This document shows, one piece after another, positions 9,877 to 36,209 of a stretch of DNA of 36,209 nucleotides (the stretch's first letter is position 1; each line of letters opens with the position of its first letter). The translations under genes and the position numbers were made by a program. Below the pieces are notes generated by a model. That model was not told the DNA's origin. It saw only the letters and a list, made by a program, of their open reading frames with translations, and ran no database searches. The stretch is from a bacterium (GTDB taxonomy: Bacteria; Patescibacteriota; UBA1384; DTJR01): positions 1-36,209 of the forward strand of contig JBDRAU010000027.1 of the NCBI GenBank assembly GCA_043823315.1, given 5' to 3'.

Positions 9877-9909
9877 AAAAACCCGCCGGGCAGATGCCCT
9901 CTAGGCGGG
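9877..9909 (-). terminator. Intrinsic-terminator-like hairpin plus U5, ending 3 nt before the ATG of the 9223..9873 gene
   Basis: Minus strand: CCCGCC-UAGA-GGGC-AUCU-GCCC-GGCGGG UUUUU AAA AUG. Confidence 0.5.
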
Positions 9910-9997
9910 AGCCCCTGCGGGCGGTGATGATTTGTTCCTGTTATTACAGGTGGGTGAGTTCAGGACTACTCCGCAGAATAGGCCGATTCGCTCTCCC
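9877..9997 (-). promoter_or_regulatory. Candidate structured cis-regulatory leader (riboswitch-like or attenuator) of the methyltransferase gene
   Basis: GC-rich ~120-nt block in an AT-rich spacer. Nested helices are GGGAG/CUCCC and CUGCGG/CCGCAG, with an internal hairpin CCUGU-AAUA-ACAGG. The 3' strand of the outer helix overlaps the 5' arm of the terminator. Confidence 0.35.
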
Positions 9998-10053
9998 TTA
10001 TATAAAATTGTTGAAACAATTATCGATCACATACACAGGGGCACTTTGATTTT

Positions 10054-10123
10054 ACCCCCACACCTATTTTTTAGCAATTGTGCACAAGTATCTTTTAAAC
10101 AATGTAGATATAGGTGTGGGGGT
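10054..10123. repeat. Perfect 14-bp inverted repeat pair (ACCCCCACACCTAT / ATAGGTGTGGGGGT) with a 42-nt spacer; an ORF-less relative of the IRs flanking the GIY-YIG remnant at 32430-32709
   Basis: Arms are at 10054-10067 and 10110-10123. They share the core CCCCCACACC with 32430-32439 and 32700-32709. Confidence 0.8.
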
Positions 10124-12724: not shown

Positions 12725-12799
12725 GCCAGCGTAGCTCAGTGGTAGAGCAGCACTTTTGTAAAGTGACGGTCGGGGGTTCGAATCCCTTCGCTGGCTCCA
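12725..12799 (+). tRNA. tRNA-Thr (anticodon UGU), CCA encoded
   Basis: GCCAGCG TA GCTC AGTGGTA GAGC A GCACT TTTGTAA AGTGA CGGTC GGGGG TTCGAAT CCCTT CGCTGGC T CCA (75 nt, with a 27:43 mismatch). Confidence 0.9.
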
Positions 12800-12945
12800 G
12801 ATTTCACCGATTGGGGCTTGCCCCAAGCGGTGAAAGATTTGGAGACACGAGAAGATTCGAAGGCCGGAGCAGCTTGGCTGCGAGGCGGGGTCGACGGCAA
12901 AATCAGCAGATTTTGACCGGTGACCAAATCCCTTCGCTGGCTCCA
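12800..12945 (+). ncRNA. tRNA-3'-linked structured element, copy 1 (novel family; ends in a second copy of tRNA-Thr(UGU) positions ~58-76 plus CCA)
   Basis: Starts GATTT directly after the CCA. It has three hairpins and the invariant blocks TCGAAGGCCG, GCGAGGCGGGGT and GTGACC, and ends in AATCCCTTCGCTGGCTCCA. Confidence 0.6.
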
Positions 12946-12964
12946 AAATGAGCTGAGTAAAAGT

Positions 12965-13061: not shown

Positions 13062-13328
13062 ATGTATTATACATATATATTAAAAAGTAAAATCGATGGA
13101 AGTTATTATATTGGATCAACTTCTTGCTTGAGAGAAAGGGTAGAAAGACATAATTGCAAGCATGCTGGGTATACTGCGAAAAAAGCACCTTACAAACTAG
13201 TACATTTTGAAAAATTTCTGACGCGTTCGCAGGCCGTTAGTAGAGAGAAAAAGATAAAATCATACAAAGGCGGCGAAGCATTTAGGAAATTAATTTGCTG
13301 GAGTAGCGAAGTGGTCAAACGCATCTGA
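13062..13328 (+). CDS. Small GIY-YIG nuclease family protein (URI domain); its 3' end overlaps tRNA-Tyr by 32 nt
   Basis: MYYTYILKSKIDGSYYIGSTSCLRERVERHN...KKIKSYKGGEAFRKLI shows the GIY/YIG motifs. The start was taken at Met-8 of the tracked ORF. Confidence 0.75.
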   Translation: MYYTYILKSKIDGSYYIGSTSCLRERVERHNCKHAGYTAKKAPYKLVHFEKFLTRSQAVSREKKIKSYKGGEAFRKLICWSSEVVKRI

Positions 13329-13445: not shown

Positions 13446-13521
13446 GCCGACATAGCTCAGTTGGTAGAGCGCGATCATGGTAAGATTGAGGTCCGCGGTT
13501 CGAATCCGCGTGTCGGCTCCA
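13446..13521 (+). tRNA. tRNA-Thr (anticodon GGU), CCA encoded
   Basis: GCCGACA TA GCTC AGTTGGTA GAGC G CGATC ATGGTAA GATTG AGGTC CGCGG TTCGAAT CCGCG TGTCGGC T CCA (76 nt). Confidence 0.9.
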
Positions 13522-13647
13522 GATTTATTGTAAATAAATATTTGGAGACGACAGGATTCGAAGGCCGCAGCCGCGACGGCGGCGAGGCGGGGTCGAGAGA
13601 TTTGCTAGCAGGCAAATACTCGTGACCGAATCCGCTCATCGGCTCCA
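13522..13647 (+). ncRNA. tRNA-3'-linked structured element, copy 2
   Basis: Same block order as copy 1. It ends in CGAATCCGC TCA TCGGCTCCA, which differs from the adjacent tRNA at 3 acceptor positions. Confidence 0.6.
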
Positions 13648-13662
13648 TAAATAAAGAAAATT

Positions 13663-14098: not shown

Positions 14099-14172
14099 AG
14101 GCCCTTGGTTAAACGGTATAATGGCGGTCTCCAAAACCGCAGTCAGAGGTTCGACTCCTCTAGGGCCTGCCA
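14099..14172 (+). tRNA. tRNA-Trp (anticodon CCA), CCA end encoded
   Basis: AGGCCCT TG GTTA AACGGTA TAAT G GCGGT CTCCAAA ACCGC AGTC AGAGG TTCGACT CCTCT AGGGCCT G CCA (74 nt). Confidence 0.9.
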
Positions 14173-14315
14173 GATTTTTGCAACCACCGGAGGTGGGTGC
14201 AAAAATATTTGACGACCAAGGAGTCGAAGGCCGGAGCGAGTGAAGACGAGCGAGGCGGGGTAGCGAGTCGCGCCAGCAGGCGCGAACTTGTGACCGACTC
14301 CTCTAGGGCCTGCCA
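14173..14315 (+). ncRNA. tRNA-3'-linked structured element, copy 3
   Basis: Same block order as copies 1 and 2. It ends in CGACTCCTCTAGGGCCTGCCA, identical to the last 21 nt of tRNA-Trp. Confidence 0.6.
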
Positions 14316-14449
14316 TATGTTGAACGAGTTCCACCTTGTTGGGACGAGAGAAGACAGGTGCGTCCGGTAATTGACGCTTCTGCAATAATACGACGTAGTC
14401 GATTTTGCAGAAAGGAATACTAACCGGACCAATATGATTTTTTAACAAA

Positions 14450-21665: not shown

Positions 21666-21693
21666 GTTCAAGCAGAGTCGAGAAACCACTATA

Positions 21694-22041
21694 TTGTTCG
21701 AGCCCGTCGAGAACTGCTCTCGGAGATCAAACTTTAGTTTGCTAAAAACACGATAAATCCCTGCCTGCCGGCAGGCAGGGTGGTCTCCCGTATTTGGAGT
21801 CCAGGTTTTAACCTGCTTATCACGCCGAAGCGTGGCTTCCAATATGCGGGAGCCCAAGCTTTAACTTGTATACTATCGGGATTGTTGTTTACCGCTGTCG
21901 AAGGATCTCTATGCTTTTACCCTGAGTTCCGTATGTCATTCCTGCGAAGCAGGAATCTGCGGGGGAAGCTTTGCCGGAGGATTTCTTGATATGTTATCTA
22001 TATTAATATTCTCGTGTCATCTCGAGCTTGTCGAGAGATCT
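21694..22041. repeat. Cluster of GC-rich hairpin repeats (families A, B and C, plus a 22-nt perfect palindrome at 21759-21780)
   Basis: B: TTGTTCGAGCCCGTCGAGAAC (21694-21714). C: GGAGATCAAACTTTAGTTTGC. Palindrome: CCCTGCCTGCCGGCAGGCAGGG. C+D composite at 21796-21840. A: TGTCATTCCTGCGAAGCAGGAATCT (21934-21958) and GTCATCTCGAGCTTGTCGAGAGATCT (22016-22041). Confidence 0.7.
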
Positions 22042-22081
22042 TTCTTTTGCGTTTATAAGCATTTCTCTTTAGAATTGAAAT

Positions 22082-26349: not shown

Positions 26350-27924
26350 ATGAAGATATACAACACCCTCTCTCGAACCAAGGAAGAAATTACTCCGATC
26401 TCTGGCGATGTTATTAGGATCTATTCTTGCGGTTTGACGGTTTATGACTATGCCCATATAGGGAACTTACGAAAATACATTTTCGACGACGTGCTAAAAA
26501 GAACGCTTGAATATTTTGACTATAAGGTTAAGCATATTCAGAACGTTACTGACGTTGGGCATTTAACTTCCGACGAGGATGAGGGCGAGGATAAAATTGA
26601 AAAAAGTGCCACAAGGGAGGGTAAAACTGCTTTTGAAATTGCTAAATTTTATGAGAAAGCTTTCGTTGAAGATTTAAAAAAGTTGAATATAGAATTACCG
26701 GACGAAATGCCAAAAGCAACCGAAAATATTCAAGAACAAATAGAATTAGTCAAAAAATTAGAAGAAAAAGGTTTTACATATAAAACGTCGGATGGAATTT
26801 ATTTTAATACATCTAAACTAAAAGATTATGGTAAGCTAGCCAGACTTGATATCGAGAACTTAAAAGAGGGGAGTCGGGTAGAGAAAAATCTCGAAAAGAA
26901 GAATCCAACCGACTTTGCACTCTGGAAATTGAGCCCTGATGGCGAGCGAATGGGGACTGTCCCCTCGCCGGGGACTGTCCCCGAAGCTCCGAGCGGTTCA
27001 AAACAGTTTACTTCGAGCGGAGCGAGAAGACAGATGGAGTGGCCTTCACCTTGGGGTGTGGGCTTTCCGGGCTGGCACCTCGAATGCTCTGCGATGGCGA
27101 CAAAATTTCTAGGTCAGCCGTTTGAAATTCACACCGGAGGCGTTGATCACATTGCAGTTCACCACACTAACGAAATAGCCCAAAGCGAAGCTGCTTGCGA
27201 TAAACCCTTGGCAAAATATTGGGTTCATAGCGAGCATCTTTTAGAGGACGGCCGAAAAATGGCGAAGTCGGATGGGCATTTTATTCGTCTTCAAGACTTG
27301 GAGGAAAAAGGTTACTCACCGCTTGATTATCGTTATTTATGTTTGACGGCTAGTTATCGTAGTAAGCTTGATTTTTCGTGGAAATCGTTTGATGCGGCTC
27401 GCTCCGCTCGCCGTAAAATAAATGACGCTTATAACCTAGTCTGTCATCCTGAATCTCCCCCGCGTCATCCCGAGCTTGTCGAGGGATCTGTCGCGAATGC
27501 GACATCTAACCCCTCTGTCATCCCGAGCGACGCGCAGGGGACTGTCCCCATGGGGTCTGTCCCCGAAGCGGAGTCGAGGGATCTATCATCCTTCAACAAA
27601 GCCCTCGCCGATGATCTTGATACTCCTCGAGCTCTTGCTTTCATTTTCAAAAATCTCTCTAGATTAAGCTCTGCTGAATTTGAAAAAATAGACGAAATTT
27701 TTGCAATCCTTGAAAAAATTGAGACTAAAAAAGAAGACGGAATTATTATTGAAGGTTATGCACCGCGGGAAGTTATCAAATTAGCTCTGGAGCGCCAAAA
27801 AGCTCGCGAGCAAAAGAATTTCAAAAAATCCGATGAGCTGCGTGACAAAATCTCAAAACTTGGTTTTAACATTGAAGACACCCAAGACGGACCGAAGATC
27901 TCCTCTATGTCATCCCGACCGTAG
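26350..27924 (+). CDS. cysS: Cysteinyl-tRNA synthetase carrying two in-frame insertions and a C-terminal tail derived from GC-rich repeat units
   Basis: HIGH region (YAHIGNLR), PWGVGFPGWHLECSAM, and a KMSKS-like KMAKSDG. Extra segments at about 26947-27033 and 27442-27591 consist of the hairpin repeat families found in the intergenic clusters. Confidence 0.9.
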   Translation: MKIYNTLSRTKEEITPISGDVIRIYSCGLTVYDYAHIGNLRKYIFDDVLKRTLEYFDYKVKHIQNVTDVGHLTSDEDEGEDKIEKSATREGKTAFEIAKFYEKAFVEDLKKLNIELPDEMPKATENIQEQIELVKKLEEKGFTYKTSDGIYFNTSKLKDYGKLARLDIENLKEGSRVEKNLEKKNPTDFALWKLSPDGERMGTVPSPGTVPEAPSGSKQFTSSGARRQMEWPSPWGVGFPGWHLECSAMATKFLGQPFEIHTGGVDHIAVHHTNEIAQSEAACDKPLAKYWVHSEHLLEDGRKMAKSDGHFIRLQDLEEKGYSPLDYRYLCLTASYRSKLDFSWKSFDAARSARRKINDAYNLVCHPESPPRHPELVEGSVANATSNPSVIPSDAQGTVPMGSVPEAESRDLSSFNKALADDLDTPRALAFIFKNLSRLSSAEFEKIDEIFAILEKIETKKEDGIIIEGYAPREVIKLALERQKAREQKNFKKSDELRDKISKLGFNIEDTQDGPKISSMSSRP

Positions 27925-28331
27925 TGGAGGGATCTGGTATGTCATTACGCCCCCGAGCTTTGTGTCATTGCGAGCCAGGCGAAGCAATCTCATAATACTG
28001 TTCGAGCTTGTCGAGAACTTCCCTCGGAGCCCAAGCTTCAGCTTGTTTTTGTTCGGAGCCCAGGTTTTAACCTGTTTCTCACACTAAAGTGTGTTTTCCT
28101 GTCTTTTGCGGAGCCCAAGCTTTAGCTTGTTTTTTTTCTTCGAGCACGAGTTTTATGTCATTGCGCGGTTTGCGAGAGCTTTTGCGAGGTGGAATCGCAA
28201 AATTCCTAAGCGCAAACCTAATCGGAAGCGCGGCAATCTGGTTTGTCATCCTGAACTGACCCTCCTGGCATCCTCGAGCCGGAAGAATTCCGACAACTTG
28301 TCCCGCACCGGATGCGGGATCGGGGATCTAG
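27908..28331. repeat. Cluster of GC-rich hairpin repeats (families A, B, C and the C+D composite) downstream of and overlapping the end of cysS
   Basis: A units start at 27908, 27939, 27962, 28155 and 28243. B unit at 28000-28018. C units at 28026 and 28109. C+D composite at 28055-28099. Confidence 0.7.
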
Positions 28332-28363
28332 ATATTCGAAATTAGAATTTTAAATTTAACTAA

Positions 28364-28390
28364 AAAAGGACCCTTGCGGATCCTTTTTTA
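28364..28390. terminator. Bidirectional terminator-like hairpin between the convergent cysS region and the RRM gene
   Basis: AAAAAAGGACCCTTGCGGATCCTTTTTT. Confidence 0.5.
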
Positions 28391-28397
28391 GTTGCTG

Positions 28398-28667
28398 TTA
28401 CTCTCTTTCTCTAGGAGCACGTGCGATGTTGACCTTAAGAGGTCTTCCATCCATGTCTTTCCCGTCGAGATCTTTCACAGCTTTATCGGCCAATTCGTCG
28501 GTTCCCATTGTGACGAAACCGAAACCTTTTGATCTTCCTGACATTTTGTCAGTAATGACCACGGAATCAGTAACTTCACCTACTTCTGAAAAAAGAGTTT
28601 TTAACTCTTCTGCAGTAGCAGAATATGGCAAGTTGCCAACGTATAGCCTATTTTTCTGTTCTTCCAT
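28398..28667 (-). CDS. RRM-type RNA-binding protein (RNP-1/RNP-2)
   Basis: RNP-2 LYVGNL and RNP-1 KGFGFVTM. 89 aa. Confidence 0.9.
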   Translation of the reverse strand: MEEQKNRLYVGNLPYSATAEELKTLFSEVGEVTDSVVITDKMSGRSKGFGFVTMGTDELADKAVKDLDGKDMDGRPLKVNIARAPRERE

Positions 28668-28820
28668 CTTGTTTGGCCCGTCTGACTCTCTTGCGATTTG
28701 TCTGATCGGGCTTCCTTAGATCTTATTGCCCCGTCTACCATTTTAAAAAAATAGTCGGGGACTTGTTCGACCCGTTTGAATTCCTCGGGCTATTCACCAA
28801 CGAGTCTCCAAACTGCATAT

Positions 28821-28849
28821 AGTATACCATATCTACCCTTTAAAGTCAA
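28821..28849 (-). promoter_or_regulatory. Near-consensus promoter of the RRM gene (TTGACT-17-TATACT), implying a ~145-nt 5' UTR
   Basis: Plus-strand agtcaa at 28844-28849 and agtata at 28821-28826, with a 17-nt spacer. Confidence 0.5.
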
Positions 28850-28874
28850 TATGGTATAACCTTATCCCGCAAAC

Positions 28875-29272
28875 CCTCCGCGTCATCCCTAACCAAACCC
28901 CTCTGTCATCCTGAACTCGTTTCAGGATCCAGAGAAACCGTCCTCCGCATTTTTTGCTATAATCGCCTCAAGTATGGCATCGACATCCCTCTGTCATCCC
29001 GCACTTGATGCGGGATCTAGTATATAAAAAATCGCCATGAGGCGATTCTTATAATCATATTGTTCGAGCCCTGCCTGCCGGCAGCAGGTCGTCGAGAACC
29101 CGCAAACCCACAATTATTATTGTTCGAGCTTGTCGAGAACCACCCTCGGAGCCCAGGTTTTAACCTGTTTCTCACGATAAATTGTGTTCTCCGGTATGGA
29201 GTCCAAACTTCAGTTTGGTAAATACGATAAATAATGGCCTCCAAAACAAATGGAGCTCAAACTTTAGTTTGC
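28875..29272. repeat. Cluster of GC-rich hairpin repeats (families A, B, C and the C+D composite)
   Basis: A: TGTCATCCTGAACTCGTTTCAGGATCC (about 28903) and TGTCATCCCGCACTTGATGCGGGATCTAG (28992-29020). B at 29051-29099 (with the CCTGCCTGCCGGCAG insert) and 29121-29140. C+D composite at 29148-29192. C units at about 29197 and 29251. Confidence 0.7.
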
Positions 29273-29316
29273 GAACATTTGACACAGCTAAAATACCCGC
29301 CTAAAATGTAAATACT

Positions 29317-29619
29317 ATGAAAAAGAAAAGTGATGTAACGTTAGATGAAGTACTAGAGGCTGTAAACAACGGTTTTACCGGTGTTCAGGAACAAATCAAT
29401 GACCTCAAGACCGATATTTTTGGTCTCAAGACCGATGTTTCCGGCCTCAAGACCGATGTCGGTGGGCTGAAACACGATATGGTTTGGGTAAAAGATACAT
29501 TGGAAAAACACACTACTATGCTCAAACGCCTCGACGAAGAGCGTATATTCACCTTAAATTATGTTAAGCGTCTTGAAAAAGAAATTGCTTTCATCAAAAA
29601 GCATCTCAAGATAGCGTAG
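29317..29619 (+). CDS. Small coiled-coil protein with four tandem heptads (LKTDIFG LKTDVSG LKTDVGG LKHDMVW)
   Basis: 100 aa. 21-nt DNA repeats span about 29404-29487. No homolog recognised. Confidence 0.55.
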   Translation: MKKKSDVTLDEVLEAVNNGFTGVQEQINDLKTDIFGLKTDVSGLKTDVGGLKHDMVWVKDTLEKHTTMLKRLDEERIFTLNYVKRLEKEIAFIKKHLKIA

Positions 29620-29686
29620 AATTCCGTGTCATCCCGCACTTGATGCGGGATCTAGCGAATACAAAAATCGCCACAAAGCGATTTTT

Positions 29687-30298: not shown

Positions 30299-30327
30299 TT
30301 GACAAACGGGTGTCAAGGTGGTATATT
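30299..30327 (+). promoter_or_regulatory. Consensus promoter (TTGACA-17-TATATT) at the left edge of the high-GC cassette
   Basis: TTGACA at 30299-30304, a 17-nt spacer, and TATATT at 30322-30327. Confidence 0.55.
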
Positions 30328-30333
30328 GGAGCG

Positions 30334-30512
30334 CTGTATTCGTACAGCTTGACCCCGATCGCGGGGTAGCTACATCCCCACACTCTTTGAGAGTGTAGGG
30401 GATAGGGACAACCGCTCTTGCCACGTTTGACGTGGTTAGCGGCCCCGCGGATCTACAGATCCCTCCGTAGCCTACGAGGCGAAGGGGGATGTACATTGAG
30501 GAGGTGGCCAAA
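30334..30512 (+). ncRNA. Long, highly structured 5' leader (or separate ncRNA) preceding the high-GC ORF
   Basis: Hairpins: GCUGUA-UUCG-UACAGC (30333-30348), ACCCCG-AUCG-CGGGGU (30352-30367), AUCCCCACACUCU..AGAGUGUAGGGGAU (30374-30403), CCACG-UUUGA-CGUGG (30421-30435) and GGAUCU-AC-AGAUCC (30449-30462). Possible closing helix GGAGCG/CGCUCU. Confidence 0.4.
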
Positions 30513-31349
30513 ATGGCCAAAGAACATAAGCCGTTTCTGCCGCAGACCCTTTGGGGCAAGATCGGAACGTGCGCTTTGGCGCTTCCGGTCCTTTTCCTTG
30601 TCCTGGTGGCATCGTTGGTCATCAGTGGGAGAGTGAGCCAGGGGCGCTTCGGACTTGCGGTGAGTCGTGGTAACTCGCTCTCCGGGTATATTCCCGAGGG
30701 CAGTATGGTCATGACGCTTCCGCTCCCACCGCGGGAGGGCAGTTACGTCACTGCGATGACAGAACTTCCCGATGACACCAGGGACACGACATCCGACGAC
30801 CGCAAACGCAAGCTTTCGGTCAAGTGGTACGACGGCACTCGCCTGGTGTCTACGGACTCACCCGAGTGCTATTCGAATTACGAGTACCGCGGGCGTGTTG
30901 TGGCGTGGTTCCCGACGCAGGAGTGGTTCCCATGGATGAACACGGGGGCTCAGAAGCCTATTCATATCCAAGACCAAGCAGAGCGCGACAGAGCCAATGA
31001 CAAGGGGAAGATTGCTGGGGTCTGGCAAGACGTCAATGAGAAGTGGGTCAAAGCAAATTGCCGCCGGATGACGCTCAAGCCCGACAAGGACGGCAAGTTT
31101 AACCTCGGCGGTAAGCGCCAGGTTTTCTGGGTTCAAGTGCAGGGGAAGCCAAGTACGACTGTTGACGCTGGTCTAGATAGTGACCTGCTATCACATATGG
31201 CTTCTATCTCGCCGTCCGGGGAACCTGGGTCGCTTATACCAGCATCGAAGATCCCTGTTCCATGTAGCGTGATCAAAGCGCGGATTGAAAGGGGACCGAG
31301 GAACCTGTCGCTCCCAACGGGCGTGACGGTTGTAGTGTGGTATAAGTGA
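30513..31349 (+). CDS. Membrane-anchored hypothetical protein in a high-GC cassette; N-terminal part weakly resembles an S24/S26 (LexA/signal-peptidase) fold
   Basis: GAGGAGG (30498-30504) lies 8 nt before the ATG at 30513; the tracked ORF starts at 30489. TM helix CALALPVLFLVLVASLVI, then GNSLSGYIPEGSMV...GSYVTA...LSVKWY...RGRVVAWF, similar to the G-x-SM-x-P..GD..V..KR..G.VV pattern (weak). Confidence 0.55.
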   Translation: MAKEHKPFLPQTLWGKIGTCALALPVLFLVLVASLVISGRVSQGRFGLAVSRGNSLSGYIPEGSMVMTLPLPPREGSYVTAMTELPDDTRDTTSDDRKRKLSVKWYDGTRLVSTDSPECYSNYEYRGRVVAWFPTQEWFPWMNTGAQKPIHIQDQAERDRANDKGKIAGVWQDVNEKWVKANCRRMTLKPDKDGKFNLGGKRQVFWVQVQGKPSTTVDAGLDSDLLSHMASISPSGEPGSLIPASKIPVPCSVIKARIERGPRNLSLPTGVTVVVWYK

Positions 31350-31450: not shown

Positions 31451-32413
31451 TTGAAAAAAATAAATGGGAAAATTTATCTTATTGTATTAGCGATTCTTGT
31501 CGTTGGAGTTTTTGTTGGTTCTTATTTTGCCCTTTTCCCTTCTCGCCAAGATACATCAAGAACTTCTGCTACCAGTGAGAGTAAAACGATTACTAGCGAA
31601 GCTGAATGGGAACAAGGTACTCTTGTTTCTATAGACTCAACTACCACAGCTGGTTCAATACGGATGTCTGACGCAACCAAAGGTCGTTACCTGGTTGCTG
31701 ACGACAGCCCCGTCTTCGATTCGAGCGCTCAATATATGGCTGATGATGATACCAGTACTAGTACAGACATCCTTATTCCAGCCATCTATTATTTAGCTGT
31801 GGATTTTCTTGGGCCAGAAAATGTTACTTCGGTCAAATGGTTTACGACACGTCTTGCAGGTGATGAAACGGCTCGAATTGACTACTACAACGGATCTTCT
31901 TGGGTGGCGATAGCGGACGTATCGGCTTGGGGTGTCTATCAAACCGAGAGTGTCTCAATCACAGCAACTAAAATTCGCGCAGTTCTCACCGGTGGAACAG
32001 AAAGAATGGCTGTCAACGAACTCCAAGCGTTTAACGGTACTGATAAGCTGTATAATTTTTCTTCTGCCACCCACACCACCGGCGCTACCCAAATAGACGG
32101 AGGAGAGAACTTCTGGAGCTGGGAGGGGTTTACGCCAACAGATTCAAAACCAGCTAACACTTCAATAACGTATCGTTATCGTACCTCCACCGACGGAGCT
32201 ACCTGGACTAGTTGGGTAGGTGATATTGGATCAGTAACCTCAAGAACTGGAGATGATTCCAACGACCCCACTCTTTACCGTTACCTTCAAGTCGAAGCCA
32301 CCCTAGCTAACACCGATGGAGCATCAACTCCCACCATCGACGCTTATGATATCGACTACCATACGGAGGTCAAGCCGACTAAGCCAGTGGCGCAGACCGC
32401 AGTAGCTCAATAA
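31451..32413 (+). CDS. Secreted/surface hypothetical protein (TTG start, N-terminal TM), possibly with a discoidin/F5-8-type-C-like sugar-binding domain
   Basis: Signal-anchor IYLIVLAILVVGVFVGSYFALF. The segment VTSVKWFTT...IDYYNGSSWVAIADV...ATKIRAVLTGG...AVNELQAF resembles galactose-binding-like domains (weak). Confidence 0.5.
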   Translation: MKKINGKIYLIVLAILVVGVFVGSYFALFPSRQDTSRTSATSESKTITSEAEWEQGTLVSIDSTTTAGSIRMSDATKGRYLVADDSPVFDSSAQYMADDDTSTSTDILIPAIYYLAVDFLGPENVTSVKWFTTRLAGDETARIDYYNGSSWVAIADVSAWGVYQTESVSITATKIRAVLTGGTERMAVNELQAFNGTDKLYNFSSATHTTGATQIDGGENFWSWEGFTPTDSKPANTSITYRYRTSTDGATWTSWVGDIGSVTSRTGDDSNDPTLYRYLQVEATLANTDGASTPTIDAYDIDYHTEVKPTKPVAQTAVAQ

Positions 32414-32429
32414 TCGATTATCACATTCA

Positions 32430-32709
32430 CCCCCACACCAAATGAATTAAGTTTACGTACTCAAGAGCAAACTAGATAACGACTTATATATTGGTTTAAC
32501 AAAGGACCTGAAGAAACGGATTTGTTTACACAACGCAGGCAGAGTAAAATCAACTGCTGAGCGTAGACCGTTAGAGCTAGTTTACTGTGAAATTTACAAA
32601 TCCGAACAAGACGCTAGGCGAAGAGAGCATAATCTTAAATTGAGAAGTAGAGCCTTTATTCAATTAAAAAAGAGAATTATAAATAGCGTCTTGTAATTTG
32701 GTGTGGGGG
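32430..32709 (+). mobile_element. Compact IR-bracketed GIY-YIG cassette (280 bp)
   Basis: 14-bp perfect inverted repeats CCCCCACACCAAAT (32430-32443) and ATTTGGTGTGGGGG (32696-32709) overlap the ATG and the stop codon of the enclosed ORF. Confidence 0.5.
32442..32696 (+). pseudogene. GIY-YIG nuclease family gene with an in-frame TAA at codon 3
   Basis: Own translation: ATG AAT TAA, then VYVLKSKLDNDLYIGLTKDLKKRICLHNAGRVKSTAERRPLELVYCEIYKSEQDARRREHNLKLRSRAFIQLKKRIINSVL*. No ATG/GTG/TTG start lies after the stop, so it is absent from the ORF track. Confidence 0.6.
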
Positions 32710-32791
32710 CAAGTCAAACCCTCCAAACCCACCGCTCAAACCGCAGTCGCGCAATAAGAACAATCGTACTATTTTAGAAATTTTATTCCTT

Positions 32792-32821
32792 GCGCTTTTT
32801 ATACGATCGTATAAAAAGCGC
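32792..32821. repeat. Perfect 30-nt palindrome GCGCTTTTTATACGA|TCGTATAAAAAGCGC, operator-like, overlapping the -35 region upstream of the PaaX-like gene
   Basis: Exact dyad. TATAAT lies at 32830-32835, an AAGGAG RBS follows, and the ATG is at 32852. Confidence 0.85.
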
Positions 32822-32851
32822 AAAAAGGATATAATTAGATAGAAGGAGAAA

Positions 32852-33433
32852 ATGAGTAAAAATATTAGAATTCCAAGACATGAAAAAACAGTATTTGCAG
32901 AAATTGCGAAGGCTGTTTTGAAATTCGCAATTCTGGGATTGGCTGTTGGCATTGTTCTTACTTCTCCGACGGGTTTATCGAGGATGATTCCCGAGCTTGC
33001 AACACTCCGCAAAAAACATGGTGATAAAGTTGTCGATAAGTCGCTTAATAAGATATTTAAAGATCGTTTTGTGAGGGTTATTCACAAAAAAAATACTACC
33101 ACTCTAAAAATCACAGAAAAGGGGAGAACAAAATTAGTAAATTTCGACATTGATACTATTAAGATTAAATCTAGCAAGTGGGATGGAAAGTGGAAGTTTG
33201 TAATTTTCGATATCCCGGAAAAAAGTCGCATCGCACGAGACGTTTTGCGACGGAAGTTAAAAGAAATCGGATTTGTACAATTACAAAAAAGTGTTTGGGT
33301 ATCTCCATATGAGTGCGAAGATGAGATCGCATTTATCGCTTCTGTTTACGAGGTGGAGAGGTATGTTAATTATATCGTTGCTTTAAAGGTTGATCACGAG
33401 CAATATTTAAAATCAAAATTTGACCTAATCTAG
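32852..33433 (+). CDS. PaaX-like protein (N-terminal TM helix plus PaaX/Cas2-like ferredoxin-fold region)
   Basis: KWDGKWKFVIFDIPEKSRIARDVLRRKLKEIGFVQLQKSVWVSPYE matches the W.G.W..v.y.IPE..R..RD.LR..L...GF..L...VW.SP signature of PaaX-family proteins. Confidence 0.5.
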   Translation: MSKNIRIPRHEKTVFAEIAKAVLKFAILGLAVGIVLTSPTGLSRMIPELATLRKKHGDKVVDKSLNKIFKDRFVRVIHKKNTTTLKITEKGRTKLVNFDIDTIKIKSSKWDGKWKFVIFDIPEKSRIARDVLRRKLKEIGFVQLQKSVWVSPYECEDEIAFIASVYEVERYVNYIVALKVDHEQYLKSKFDLI

Positions 33434-33444
33434 AAATCAATCTT

Positions 33445-33474
33445 GCGCTTTTCTTACGATCGTACAAAAAGCGA
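33445..33474. repeat. Second, imperfect copy of the 30-nt palindrome (GCGCTTTTCTTACGATCGTACAAAAAGCGA)
   Basis: 26 of 30 positions are identical to 32792-32821. It lies 12 nt after the stop of the PaaX-like gene. Confidence 0.8.
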
Positions 33475-33657
33475 CAGGTAGATCTAGGTTGCAGTGTTGT
33501 TCAAAATTCGTGTTTTCTGGCTTCGTATTGTATAAGGCAGTGTTGCAATAAGCTATAATGAATATAAGAAAATTTGATAAATGGCTAAATTAATATTATG
33601 AGGATTGGTCAAGATTTCAGCCACATAGTTTTTGTTGAAAAATTTAAAAAGACCCTG

Positions 33658-36209
33658 ATGAAATTGCCCCGAATAAATAAAAAGGTTTTTTCTCGTCGAA
33701 CTGGTACTCTGGTTGCTATCTTAGTAATAATAATCAGCGCCGTAATTTTAATCTTAAAGAACCAAATTTTTGCCGATGTACAGGCGTTTCCAGAATGTAC
33801 AAGCACAAATCCATACACCGTCAAAGCGGGCAAACAAATATATATGGACAGGGAAATTGAGAAACCGACTAATTTTCCGGGAGTGCCACAAAATTATTTG
33901 GTCAGAATTTCCCGCGACGTGGTCAAGAGAGAGCTTGGGGATTTTGCAAATACAAAGACGATTGTATGCTACAAAAAGAGTGGCGTGCTGGTTCAAATCC
34001 CAAGTTTTGTGGAGTCGGGTGAGATTTGGTTCCAAATTCAAGATGATATTTCCCAAAACAGCGAAGCCCAATACTACATCTCAAAAACTACAGACGAGTC
34101 GAAAAAACTAAATCTAGTTAATTCGACAGATATTGAGTCCCATCCTTTTAAGTCCGAGAGCTCGTTCAGTAATCCGGTCCCATCAACTGAAAATACATAC
34201 TGGCGTAAAGTTCTCTGGAATGGCTCGGTCAGTGCTGATTTTTTCCCAACGAATGATGTAAGCCCGGGAGGAAACGACACATTGGTGACCAAGAATTTTA
34301 AAGGACAACTCGACCCGGCAACGACTGGCTGGAGCACTTTCTTAAACAGTAAACCGATAGAGTATGACCCTGCAATTAACGCCGCGCAAAAGGGAACCTA
34401 CCTGCTTACCGTGGGATGGGCAAAGTTTGCAAATGTAAAAGTGCCGAGGGAAAACAACCTGGCTATGAAATATGGCTTCGACGCCACCGTCAGAAATTAC
34501 GCTTATAAAGACGGGGCTTGGGTAGGTTATAATGTACTGAGAGTCTCAGATAGTGTAAACACCGGCTGGGAACGATATCAAACTTCGATCATTCTTCGTG
34601 ACGATAAAATGAATGTGTCTGTTTTTTCCGATACTCATAATTTGCTCTCGGGCGAGATAAGCTATTCGAGTTTCAAATTCATCAAGAACATCAAAGCTCC
34701 ACGCGAGCTCAAACAAACAGTATCAGTGGCGGGGAAAAGTACTACTGTCGAATGGCGTGAAAACATGGTCAAATATTTTGGCAATACTATAATCACTCCT
34801 CGCTCCACAACTAATTATCCCGGGAGTGCTTTCAAACTGGATAAATCAACTAAGCTTTTCGTAACTAATAACTTCCCTGATTATTACAAAGACCACTTTG
34901 ACGGGGAATCACTCATTGTAACTAAAAAGCTGCAAAGCGTAATTAAACAAAGCCATAATTTCGATATTTCCCTGTCGGAAATAAAAGGCTTCTCAGCCGA
35001 TCGAGCAATTATTGTTGGGGATCTAGAAAATGAGCAGTTTAGAAATTTTGCCTACACCCTTCGCCCTGACATTAAAAACATGATTTTTCAAAAAGAAGGT
35101 TTTAGGATTTTCGTTGGCGAAAAATATATCCTAGCTGTTGGCAAAGACATGGTTGGCAGTTATTATGCCTCGTTGCGATTGGCGGATTTGTTTCTCGGTC
35201 AGTCAACCATTTCTCAGCGCATGGAGGAAGACTACGCGGATAATTCATTTAGAAACATGCCATCGTGGAACATAACTCAGCGCGAGCATGTATTGCAAAA
35301 CGTTAAAGACGACATTAGTCGAATTTCCGAACAGCGTTATAATTTTTATACTGTAAATAGCACCTATGAGTTTTTATATATCGGCGAGGTCTATGATAAG
35401 GATGGCAAAAATGCACGAAGGGACATGATGGTGGATATATTCTCATACGCGAGAAAGTACTTCATGGAGCCGATCGCCTCAAGCTTCTCGTTTGGCTATA
35501 ACTTCGGTCTAACGCCTCAAAACCTAACCTATAAAACCAGAACGGTTACCGTGCTCGAAAGCCGATCGGGACAGTTCGCTCTTAACCTTACTCGAAAATT
35601 TACCGACGAGGACCGCGCAGGAGAAAATCCGACAGATATTCCGCTTATTGTTAAAAATCTTTCCGACACGACGACTTATAAGGAGGGGAGCGACTATTCT
35701 ATCGAATACAAGCAAAAATCGACAACCGATACATCAAAAGCATACTTTATAAATCTATTGCCGAGTTCTTTTATTCAGCCAAACCTGTTTGATCTCACGG
35801 TTGTTCTCAAAGACGGTCAGCAGAAAAATATTCAGTTTCTACACAGTGGAACTACCGCACCCTCTTTAAGTGAGAAGCTTACCTCTGAGCCGGTTGAGCT
35901 CTGGAACAAAAATAAGACTGTTCAATACGGGCGGATTGCTGGCAAGACTACCGGTGGTTACAATATCGATGGATCGGAAAAGAGCTGGAAGATTTCGATA
36001 CCATTTGCCTCCGATATTAAACCGGTTTCATATAAGCTCCACATGACATATAACGGAGAGGAAGCTGGATTCAACAAGAGTAACAGATTAACATCAAAGT
36101 ATGCACGCGGGATAGCAACTACCGGAATTGATAATGCCATTAAATATTTGAAGCCTAAATATATTCATATTAACAATGATGAGGTAACTGGTGTTGGCAC
36201 TGATTATCG
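33658..36209 (+). CDS. Large secreted/surface protein, partial (>850 aa, runs off the window); possibly glycoside-hydrolase-like
   Basis: Own translation shows an uninterrupted frame from the ATG at 33658 to the window end. It is not in the ORF track because no stop is present. Signal-anchor GTLVAILVIIISAVILIL. The segment EGFRIFVGEKYILAVGKDMVGSYYASLRLADLF resembles the N-terminal domain preceding GH20/GH84-type catalytic barrels (weak). Confidence 0.6.
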   Translation, partial: MKLPRINKKVFSRRTGTLVAILVIIISAVILILKNQIFADVQAFPECTSTNPYTVKAGKQIYMDREIEKPTNFPGVPQNYLVRISRDVVKRELGDFANTKTIVCYKKSGVLVQIPSFVESGEIWFQIQDDISQNSEAQYYISKTTDESKKLNLVNSTDIESHPFKSESSFSNPVPSTENTYWRKVLWNGSVSADFFPTNDVSPGGNDTLVTKNFKGQLDPATTGWSTFLNSKPIEYDPAINAAQKGTYLLTVGWAKFANVKVPRENNLAMKYGFDATVRNYAYKDGAWVGYNVLRVSDSVNTGWERYQTSIILRDDKMNVSVFSDTHNLLSGEISYSSFKFIKNIKAPRELKQTVSVAGKSTTVEWRENMVKYFGNTIITPRSTTNYPGSAFKLDKSTKLFVTNNFPDYYKDHFDGESLIVTKKLQSVIKQSHNFDISLSEIKGFSADRAIIVGDLENEQFRNFAYTLRPDIKNMIFQKEGFRIFVGEKYILAVGKDMVGSYYASLRLADLFLGQSTISQRMEEDYADNSFRNMPSWNITQREHVLQNVKDDISRISEQRYNFYTVNSTYEFLYIGEVYDKDGKNARRDMMVDIFSYARKYFMEPIASSFSFGYNFGLTPQNLTYKTRTVTVLESRSGQFALNLTRKFTDEDRAGENPTDIPLIVKNLSDTTTYKEGSDYSIEYKQKSTTDTSKAYFINLLPSSFIQPNLFDLTVVLKDGQQKNIQFLHSGTTAPSLSEKLTSEPVELWNKNKTVQYGRIAGKTTGGYNIDGSEKSWKISIPFASDIKPVSYKLHMTYNGEEAGFNKSNRLTSKYARGIATTGIDNAIKYLKPKYIHINNDEVTGVGTDY

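Follow-up and report, generated by a model that had tools for sequence, protein, structure and literature searches.

The window analysed here is a stretch of 36,209 nt corresponding to contig C27 of an 805-kb genome in 89 contigs with a G+C content of 42.5%. It contains a 280-bp cassette (cassette 1), in which two arms at 32430-32443 and 32696-32709 enclose a GIY-YIG ORF, and an element elsewhere which has the same termini and no ORF. The features referred to below are as follows:

31451-32413, + strand: host gene for a 320-aa protein with a predicted membrane anchor, no Pfam domain and a C-terminal domain common to many paralogues
32366-32429, + strand: segment imported with cassette 1, in which a divergent sequence replaces the final 16 codons and stop of the host gene (32366-32413) and is followed by a 16-nt spacer
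32430-32443, + strand: left terminal inverted repeat, CCCCCACACCAAAT, overlapping the ATG at 32442
32442-32696, + strand: putative GIY-YIG nuclease pseudogene of 84 codons (translation MN*VYVLKS..., PF01541, family alignment)
32696-32709, + strand: right terminal inverted repeat, ATTTGGTGTGGGGG, the exact complement of the left arm, overlapping the TAA stop at 32694-32696
32710-32757, + strand: native 3' end of the host gene, now displaced, QVKPSKPTAQTAVAQ and a stop, out of frame and beginning directly after the right arm
9907-10045, - strand: candidate 6S RNA gene (RF00013, 30 bits, E = 1.4e-4, below the gathering score of 46.4)
10055-10122, no strand assigned: ORF-less hairpin element of 68 bp with the same termini, a 14-bp stem if the flanking A/T is counted and a 42-nt loop

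When we re-read the sequence, the four arms and their overlap with the ATG and the TAA stop were exactly as the initial annotation had described them. The cassette 1 ORF matches PF01541 (E = 1.9e-14), which was the sole domain found in a Pfam search; it is the only ORF of the cassette, and no member of a recognised transposase class (DDE, HUH, serine, tyrosine) is encoded there. Codon 3 of this ORF (32448-32450) is TAA at a position where the family has a near-invariant tyrosine, kept in at least 90% of homologues (alignment of 40 homologues, 84 residues long), and it differs from TAT or TAC by one base. The in-frame stop had already been pointed out, and it is real, since the whole cassette including the TAA is identical in an independent public assembly (GCA_043824275.1, locus L043) of a strain which is 98.4% identical. 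All 23 of the 23 other invariant family positions are intact, including the GIY and YIG tyrosines, R26, H30 and E62, and the closest protein among 5.8 billion sequences searched is only 76% identical. We read the ORF as a young pseudogene, recently inactivated by a single Tyr-to-stop change. Two explanations had been offered for the premature stop, a dead copy or expression from a non-canonical start, and it is the former which the sequence favours; rescue by an alternative start or by recoding was rejected, since neither ATG, GTG nor TTG occurs in frame close to codon 3 and the neighbouring genes stop at TAA normally.

Cassette 1 is identical in both available strains, with no within-species polymorphism among these two. 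We considered this low divergence as a sign of recent arrival and rejected it, as the strains differ in a few clustered patches only and the whole region from 30.6 to 33.6 kb is nearly identical. The patches in question lie at 30315-30614 and 34215-35414, with 19 differences in 300 nt at 30.3 kb and approximately 58 in the gene for a PA14 protein, while the 3 kb around cassette 1 contain 2 differences; the confinement of differences to patches suggests a recombination mosaic.

The displaced 3' end of the host gene had been overlooked in the initial annotation. As a reference for this gene end we used a paralogous module 11 kb downstream, in which a surface-protein gene precedes a PaaX-like gene and no cassette is present. 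The host gene is 77–97% identical to this reference per 30-nt window up to about position 32350 and about 86% identical just upstream of 32366, and over its last 60 nt identity falls to 67%. The 48 nt which follow the right arm are a near-copy of the host gene's present end, EVKPTKPVAQTAVAQ and a stop. We take this remnant to be the native end because it is nearer to the paralogue (42/48 matches) than the in-frame copy is (31/48), and the intergenic sequence 3' of the remnant is also homologous to the paralogous module. The differences between remnant and in-frame copy are mostly synonymous, which implies that the two ends diverged as coding genes before being joined; a target duplication which decayed in place was ruled out as the source of the remnant for the same reason. 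It is evident from these comparisons that about 345 nt were imported as one piece, comprising the replacement end, its stop, the 16-nt spacer and the cassette, and that replacement of the last 16 codons kept the host protein whole while the native end was left behind as a remnant.

We infer that such a displaced 3' end marks a homing-like transfer between alleles in which the right-hand junction falls precisely where the repeat ends. In a screen of 47 cassettes a second clear case was found, in an unrelated host gene of a Patescibacteria MAG (L122), where CCWIGCIHRKDKAISR, running on to a stop, precedes the cassette and CCWIGCVHRRDKPLSR, also running on to a stop, lies directly after the right arm. 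No cassette was present at those homologous or paralogous host-gene ends that we examined. It should be noted that the paralogous gene has a CACACC just before the point at which the remnant starts, which resembles the core of the inverted repeat (IR), arises from His-Thr codons and may be a coincidence.

With at most one mismatch allowed, we counted 6 copies of the 10-nt IR core in the window, where 0.71 would be expected, and 0 of 100 shuffles reached 6. A genome-wide search had been proposed as a check on whether the core exists beyond the two loci, and it does, with 19 matches in this genome, mostly in pairs of ACCCCCACACC and GGTGTGGGGGT, and enrichment in several other genomes. Pairs which enclose 42–84 nt and no ORF are located at C6:5263, C11:18281, C27:10055, C30:5143 and C44:19998; together with degenerate core pairs on contigs C13, C81 and C82, there are at least 8 ORF-less pairs here. 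Among 61 related genomes the core was counted 19 (own genome), 18, 13, 22 and 15 times in five genomes and 0–6 times in the rest, with the reversed pattern as a control giving 0–5 per genome; the sister species has 1 match vs 19 here. Motif and gene co-occur, in that a homologue at least 60% identical was found in three genomes only (G000, G006 and G009) and all three are motif-rich (hypergeometric P ~3e-4, by hand arithmetic). Two further genomes, G039 and G043, are rich in the motif but have no close homologue, the latter being only 79% complete.

The arms of the 68-bp element are ACCCCCACACCTAT at 10054-10067 and ATAGGTGTGGGGGT at 10110-10123, and its predicted DNA fold has an energy of -15.6 kcal/mol (z = -4.3). 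It lies 10 nt beyond the stop codon of an M50-like peptidase gene (- strand) and approximately 10 nt upstream of the candidate 6S RNA, in the promoter region of this RNA gene, and splits the promoter. Empty sites in relatives, which it had been suggested to look for, do exist: the hairpin element is missing from six relatives (the sister species among them) in which the peptidase gene, a TGnTATAAT-like promoter and the conserved RNA are all present, and four relatives lack an insertion at the yqeY site described below. The flanks of the 10055 element on the - strand are TACA and TAAA, matching at 3/4 positions, and in silico removal of the element with one TAAA copy produces TTGATAAAAT, a plausible extended -10 box. 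The element may itself supply a TTGCTA -35 box for the candidate 6S RNA, 17 nt upstream of TAAAAT.

We also examined how far the cassette is distributed. Homologues of the 84-aa protein at 55–77% identity were found in many Patescibacteria lineages, Omnitrophota, Margulisiibacteriota, Planctomycetota, Elusimicrobia, Cloacimonadota and one Bathyarchaeia MAG. We fetched 80 loci, of which 77 were scorable for IRs (from Patescibacteria, Omnitrophota, Planctomycetota, Margulisiibacteriota and further groups), and in 48 of the 77 a perfect IR of at least 12 bp frames the homologous ORF, nearly all of these beginning ACCCCCACACC. It was possible to delimit 46 cassettes of 282–345 bp each, with a median stem of 19 bp when single mismatches are allowed and a terminal IR consensus of ACCCCCACACCAAT; some relatives have other arms (CCCGTTAGAGATA in G009, CCCCTCACCCTTCAACCA in G020). 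The conserved ends thus travel with the gene across phyla, and since the arms frame homologous genes in so many of them, they are a conserved part of a gene-plus-ends unit and not a local accident. The best cassette pairs in unrelated flanks are 80–88% identical, the two cassettes of this genome are only 63% identical in DNA and no near-identical copies at different sites were found, which offers no sign of recent transposition.

Among PDB sequences, the UPF0213 proteins 1zg2 (E = 4.6e-11) and 1ywl are nearest to the nuclease, with SLX1 next, and a search of NCBIfam gave no useful family (TIGR01453, 22 bits vs a cut-off of 56). We found no description of such cassettes in a full-text search of the literature, and this is apparently a very widespread, undescribed family of cassettes of approximately 280–300 bp with one 84-aa GIY-YIG gene (UPF0213/Ssn-like) between conserved ends. 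In two other genomes (L035 and L142), cassettes of this family directly adjoin the GAGGAAAGTCC region of what appears to be an RNase P RNA gene. Small GIY-YIG genes in related genomes (L016, L027 and L042) adjoin tRNA genes, and a partial copy of the 5' part of the tRNA lies on the far side of the nuclease gene.

ORF-less pairs in G006, G009, G043, G039 and G004 enclose 6–144 nt, many of these units being approximately 100 bp overall, and the overall length of ORF-less units ranges from 26 to 164 bp. We found perfect 4-nt direct flanks of the type TNNA (TTGA, TCAA, TAAA, TTTA, TGGA) at 16/27 ORF-less elements (P < 1e-4, also under within-genome permutation) and inverted flanks at 0 of these 27. 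The ORF cassettes have perfect 4-nt direct flanks in 9/46 cases vs 3 expected (permutation test: P = 0.0016). As regards the target-site duplications which it had been recommended to look for, the signal is thus weaker for the ORF cassettes than for the ORF-less elements, and cassette 1 itself has no direct flank repeat (TTCA to the left, CAAG to the right). These permutation tests, the shuffle test and the occurrence of the same ends around the same gene across phyla make it hardly credible that the repeats match by chance or are ordinary terminator hairpins common to unrelated genes, an objection which had been raised from the beginning and for which the intergenic position of the elements speaks, and nothing further.

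A direct flank repeat of 4 bp is typical of cut-and-paste DDE elements, and the ORF-less elements might on this ground be ordinary MITEs moved by a conventional transposase in trans, with the GIY-YIG gene as mere cargo between such ends. We regard this as improbable, given that no conventional transposase gene was present between distant motif pairs in the regions fetched (a search which was not exhaustive), that the ends are conserved with one and the same gene across phyla and that motif abundance tracks the nuclease gene. Genomes of this kind, of 0.5–1 Mb, are also poor in insertion sequences.

Some ORF-less copies within G006, and some within G009, visibly share interiors. The ORF-less elements of this genome have only their ends in common, with no interior similarity to each other or to either cassette, and we rejected them as deletion derivatives of the cassette on this basis. 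The initial annotation had seen in the two loci of the window an autonomous/miniature pair. What stands of this is that the same termini bound ORF-bearing and ORF-less units and that both are insertions relative to related genomes, but the interior of the 68-bp element is unlike that of the cassettes, and it is no MITE-type miniature of them.

A combined tblastn and Pfam search identified seven small GIY-YIG genes in this genome. The closest paralogue of the cassette 1 ORF, on contig C83, is 64% identical, has an intact ATG and is framed by ATCCCCACACCAAT and its complement (cassette 2); its protein is identical in GCA_043824275.1. C83 directly follows the window in the better assembly (GCA_043824275.1), which places the intact cassette 2 5.3 kb downstream of cassette 1 and directly before the yqeY ATG, in the gene order 320-aa protein, cassette 1, PaaX-like gene, 1451-aa PA14 protein, 61-aa ORF, cassette 2, YqeY, YbeY, FtsA and FtsZ. 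There is no direct flank repeat at cassette 2. The yqeY site is empty in G002, G003, G004 and G006, where the upstream small ORF abuts the ATG with nothing between, and in the sister species (G001) it holds a 115-nt ORF-less hairpin with different arms (CCCCGTTAGAGAC). The PaaX-like gene between the two cassettes (32852-33433) is bracketed by perfect palindromes at 32788-32830 and 33436-33478 which are centred on CGATCG (GCGCTTTTTATACGATCGTATAAAAAGCGC), and a paralogous PaaX-like gene in L043 has the same palindrome centre with different arms (TTACCACCTACTGCCGATCGGCAGTAGGTGGTAA); these palindromes are possibly operators specific to each PaaX-like paralogue.

Three other paralogues (on C74, C32 and C72) are also framed by inverted repeats, of other sequences. 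The first of these (C74:370-690) is enclosed by a perfect 20-bp IR (TCCAGCACCACTTTATGCTT) and occupies the 16S-23S spacer, where it follows closely on the 3' end of the 16S rRNA gene, and the second is flanked by GTCATTGCGAGG hairpins. In the third (C72:4126-4905), a GIY-YIG module of approximately 95 codons lies in frame within a Fic/Doc gene and splits its active-site motif exactly at HPFQN/GNKR; the module has imperfect inverted repeats at its edges, and its removal lifts the Fic score from 28.9 to 47.4 bits. All 41 of the 41 related genomes searched contain small GIY-YIG genes, with 1–10 per genome. Another GIY-YIG gene (13062-13262) was observed within the tRNA array of the window, in which a structured repeat of approximately 90 nt follows three tRNA genes (12797-12950, 13519-13650 and 14170-14320), with a further copy on C31. 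This repeat is closed by the stem GGATTCG...CGAATCC and contains a conserved GCGAGGCGGGGTCGA together with an inner hairpin, whose AGCAG loop is constant and is surrounded by compensatory changes; Rfam gave no match for it.

The paralogue between 20-bp arms in the 16S-23S spacer, the overlap of the left arm with the ATG and a G-run in the right arm which lies 3–8 nt before the next gene's ATG in many loci would all suit an IR which acts mainly in RNA, as an mRNA stem hiding the nuclease start codon, an RNase III site or a terminator, the DNA being immobile. This is very improbable: stem mismatches compatible with G.U pairing are not in excess on the sense strand (8 vs 7), no T-run follows the stem, loops span from 6 to about 260 nt, and the empty sites, the direct flanks and the displaced 3' end would be left unexplained.

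We favour, with a probability of approximately 60%, the explanation that 32430-32709 is a recently inactivated member of a widespread family of GIY-YIG cassettes, accompanied by independently inserting ORF-less companions which have the same termini and usually 4-bp TNNA flanks, the spread of the family presumably being driven by the nuclease. To our knowledge no hydrolytic nuclease of 84 aa is known for strand transfer, which counts against this explanation. The low identity of the two cassettes here, their missing direct flank repeats, the unrelated interiors of the ORF-less elements and the identity of cassette 1 in both strains weigh against it as well. In the mechanism that we propose, the two cassette arms would pair when the DNA is single-stranded, and the encoded nuclease would recognise the hairpin made by its own ends and cut at the hairpin foot, as Ssn does at SRM hairpins; it is because of this precedent (Chenal et al. 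2025) that we infer hairpin cutting. The cut at the hairpin foot would then drive copying or insertion of the cassette. Between alleles the unit would spread in a homing-like manner, by homologous recombination on its left side, while on its right side the junction would fall precisely at the arm. Because of its TAA codon, cassette 1 would be non-autonomous, and the intact cassette 2 could supply the nuclease in trans.

The same components could instead form a domesticated nuclease-and-repeat system which serves the host, for example by limiting or directing the recombination of incoming ssDNA around variable surface-protein genes. This would fit the Ssn precedent, including repeats clustered around membrane-protein genes (PMC11893778), and the position of cassettes 1 and 2, which bracket the PaaX-like gene and the 1451-aa PA14 surface-protein gene, the latter holding most of the differences between the strains. 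The ORF-less termini are also perfectly conserved while their interiors have fully diverged, implying selection on the ends. We nevertheless consider domestication unlikely. The distribution is patchy and does not follow phylogeny (as in the sister species, with its single motif), the nuclease gene is 60–77% identical across phyla, the cassette 1 copy is a pseudogene and insertions are found in a promoter, before a start codon and within a Doc toxin gene.

Movement of the cassette by its own nuclease, as the preferred explanation supposes, would make it a minimal mobile element, using chemistry which is not known for prokaryotic transposition, and would account for the abundance of small GIY-YIG genes in ultra-small bacteria. 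We offer only tentatively the stronger proposal that the unit of approximately 285 bp is an autonomous mobile element whose sole protein is a structure-guided nuclease acting on the hairpin of its own ends; it might then be the smallest self-contained mobile DNA known, outside the recognised transposase classes, spreading across bacterial phyla and protecting host genes by means of replacement gene ends. Annotation is disturbed where cassettes or the gene-less units lie within promoters or genes or just ahead of start codons, as happens in this genome at the candidate 6S RNA gene, the Doc toxin gene and a gene end. Each pair of nuclease and hairpin is in addition a candidate sequence- or structure-specific DNA-cutting tool, as has been argued for the Ssn enzymes.

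We compared the cassettes and their companions to known systems. They are similar to bacterial MITEs such as the Correia elements in being short, with terminal inverted repeats, short direct flanks and insertion in intergenic or promoter regions. Unlike for those, no parent IS with a recognised transposase was found and the interiors are not conserved within this genome. With IS200/IS605 and REP/RAYT they share hairpin repeats, a plausible single-strand mechanism and a small gene with many gene-less repeats; however, they lack an HUH (Y1) transposase and have 4-bp direct flanks, and their two ends pair together where in those systems each end forms a subterminal hairpin of its own.

The Seg/Tev-type GIY-YIG homing endonucleases have a catalytic and a DNA-binding domain in approximately 200–250 aa, whereas the protein here has only 84 aa. 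As regards the presence/absence and co-conversion expected of that type, our comparison, which covered paralogous and orthologous sites, showed empty sites of both kinds and a divergent 3' end that had been imported along with the cassette. A GIY-YIG ORF in the atp6 gene of Allomyces macrogynus is reportedly a free-standing homing gene which carries a replacement for the 3' end of its target gene (Paquin et al. 1994 are said to have described it). The likeness to such genes lies in the divergent foreign C-terminal codons, in frame before the nuclease gene, and the native end as a downstream remnant; the differences are a bacterial chromosome in place of a mitochondrion, a nuclease without a DNA-binding domain, and conserved inverted ends with gene-less companions.

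The closest published analogue of the cassette family is Ssn/SRM, although the architecture differs. Ssn enzymes are single-domain GIY-YIG enzymes (CDD cd10448), including SsnA of Neisseria meningitidis, which cut only ssDNA, next to hairpin repeats flanking their own genes, and which also accept a stem assembled from two separate oligos (Chenal et al., Nat Commun 2025; PMC11893778). The NTS-ssnA-NTS layout was termed IS-like by its authors, and the role proposed for SsnA/NTS in Neisseria is to limit or direct the recombination of incoming ssDNA (PMC11893778). The view that it is unusual for a GIY-YIG gene to be bounded by inverted repeats, expressed in the initial annotation, is outdated in light of these hairpin-repeat-flanked single-domain genes. 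The two systems are alike in having a single-domain GIY-YIG protein of about 85–95 aa (here 84 codons, PF01541 only), a cognate hairpin-forming repeat on both sides of the gene and many ORF-less copies of the repeat in the same genome, co-occurring with the gene.

They differ in that each flank of a cassette is half a hairpin and the arms pair across the whole gene, forming one long-range IR in contrast to the self-contained hairpins of SRM (of the CGTCATTCCCGCG...GCGGGAATC type). The repeat sequence of the cassettes is also unrelated to SRM, symmetric and without an orienting 5' extension, and the ORF-less copies here have 6–144-nt loops and 4-bp direct flanks. The protein subfamily is different as well, the cassette 1 protein being approximately 34% identical over 68 aa to an SRM-flanked paralogue and having UPF0213 proteins as its nearest solved relatives. 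SRM-type flanks were found on other paralogues (C32, L028 and L030), and canonical SRM-like hairpins (GTCATCCCG...CGGGATC) and GIY-YIG genes of the C32 type are also present in this genome. In the window, SRM/NTS-like hairpins (GTCATCCCG...CGGGATC and variants) are clustered at 27440-29660 and 21690-22050, without exception on the + strand, and are mixed with the short hairpin repeats CGGAGCCCAAGCTTnAGCTTG and GTTCGAGCTTGTCGAGAAC, and the Ssn-type class thus coexists here with the CCCCCACACC class.
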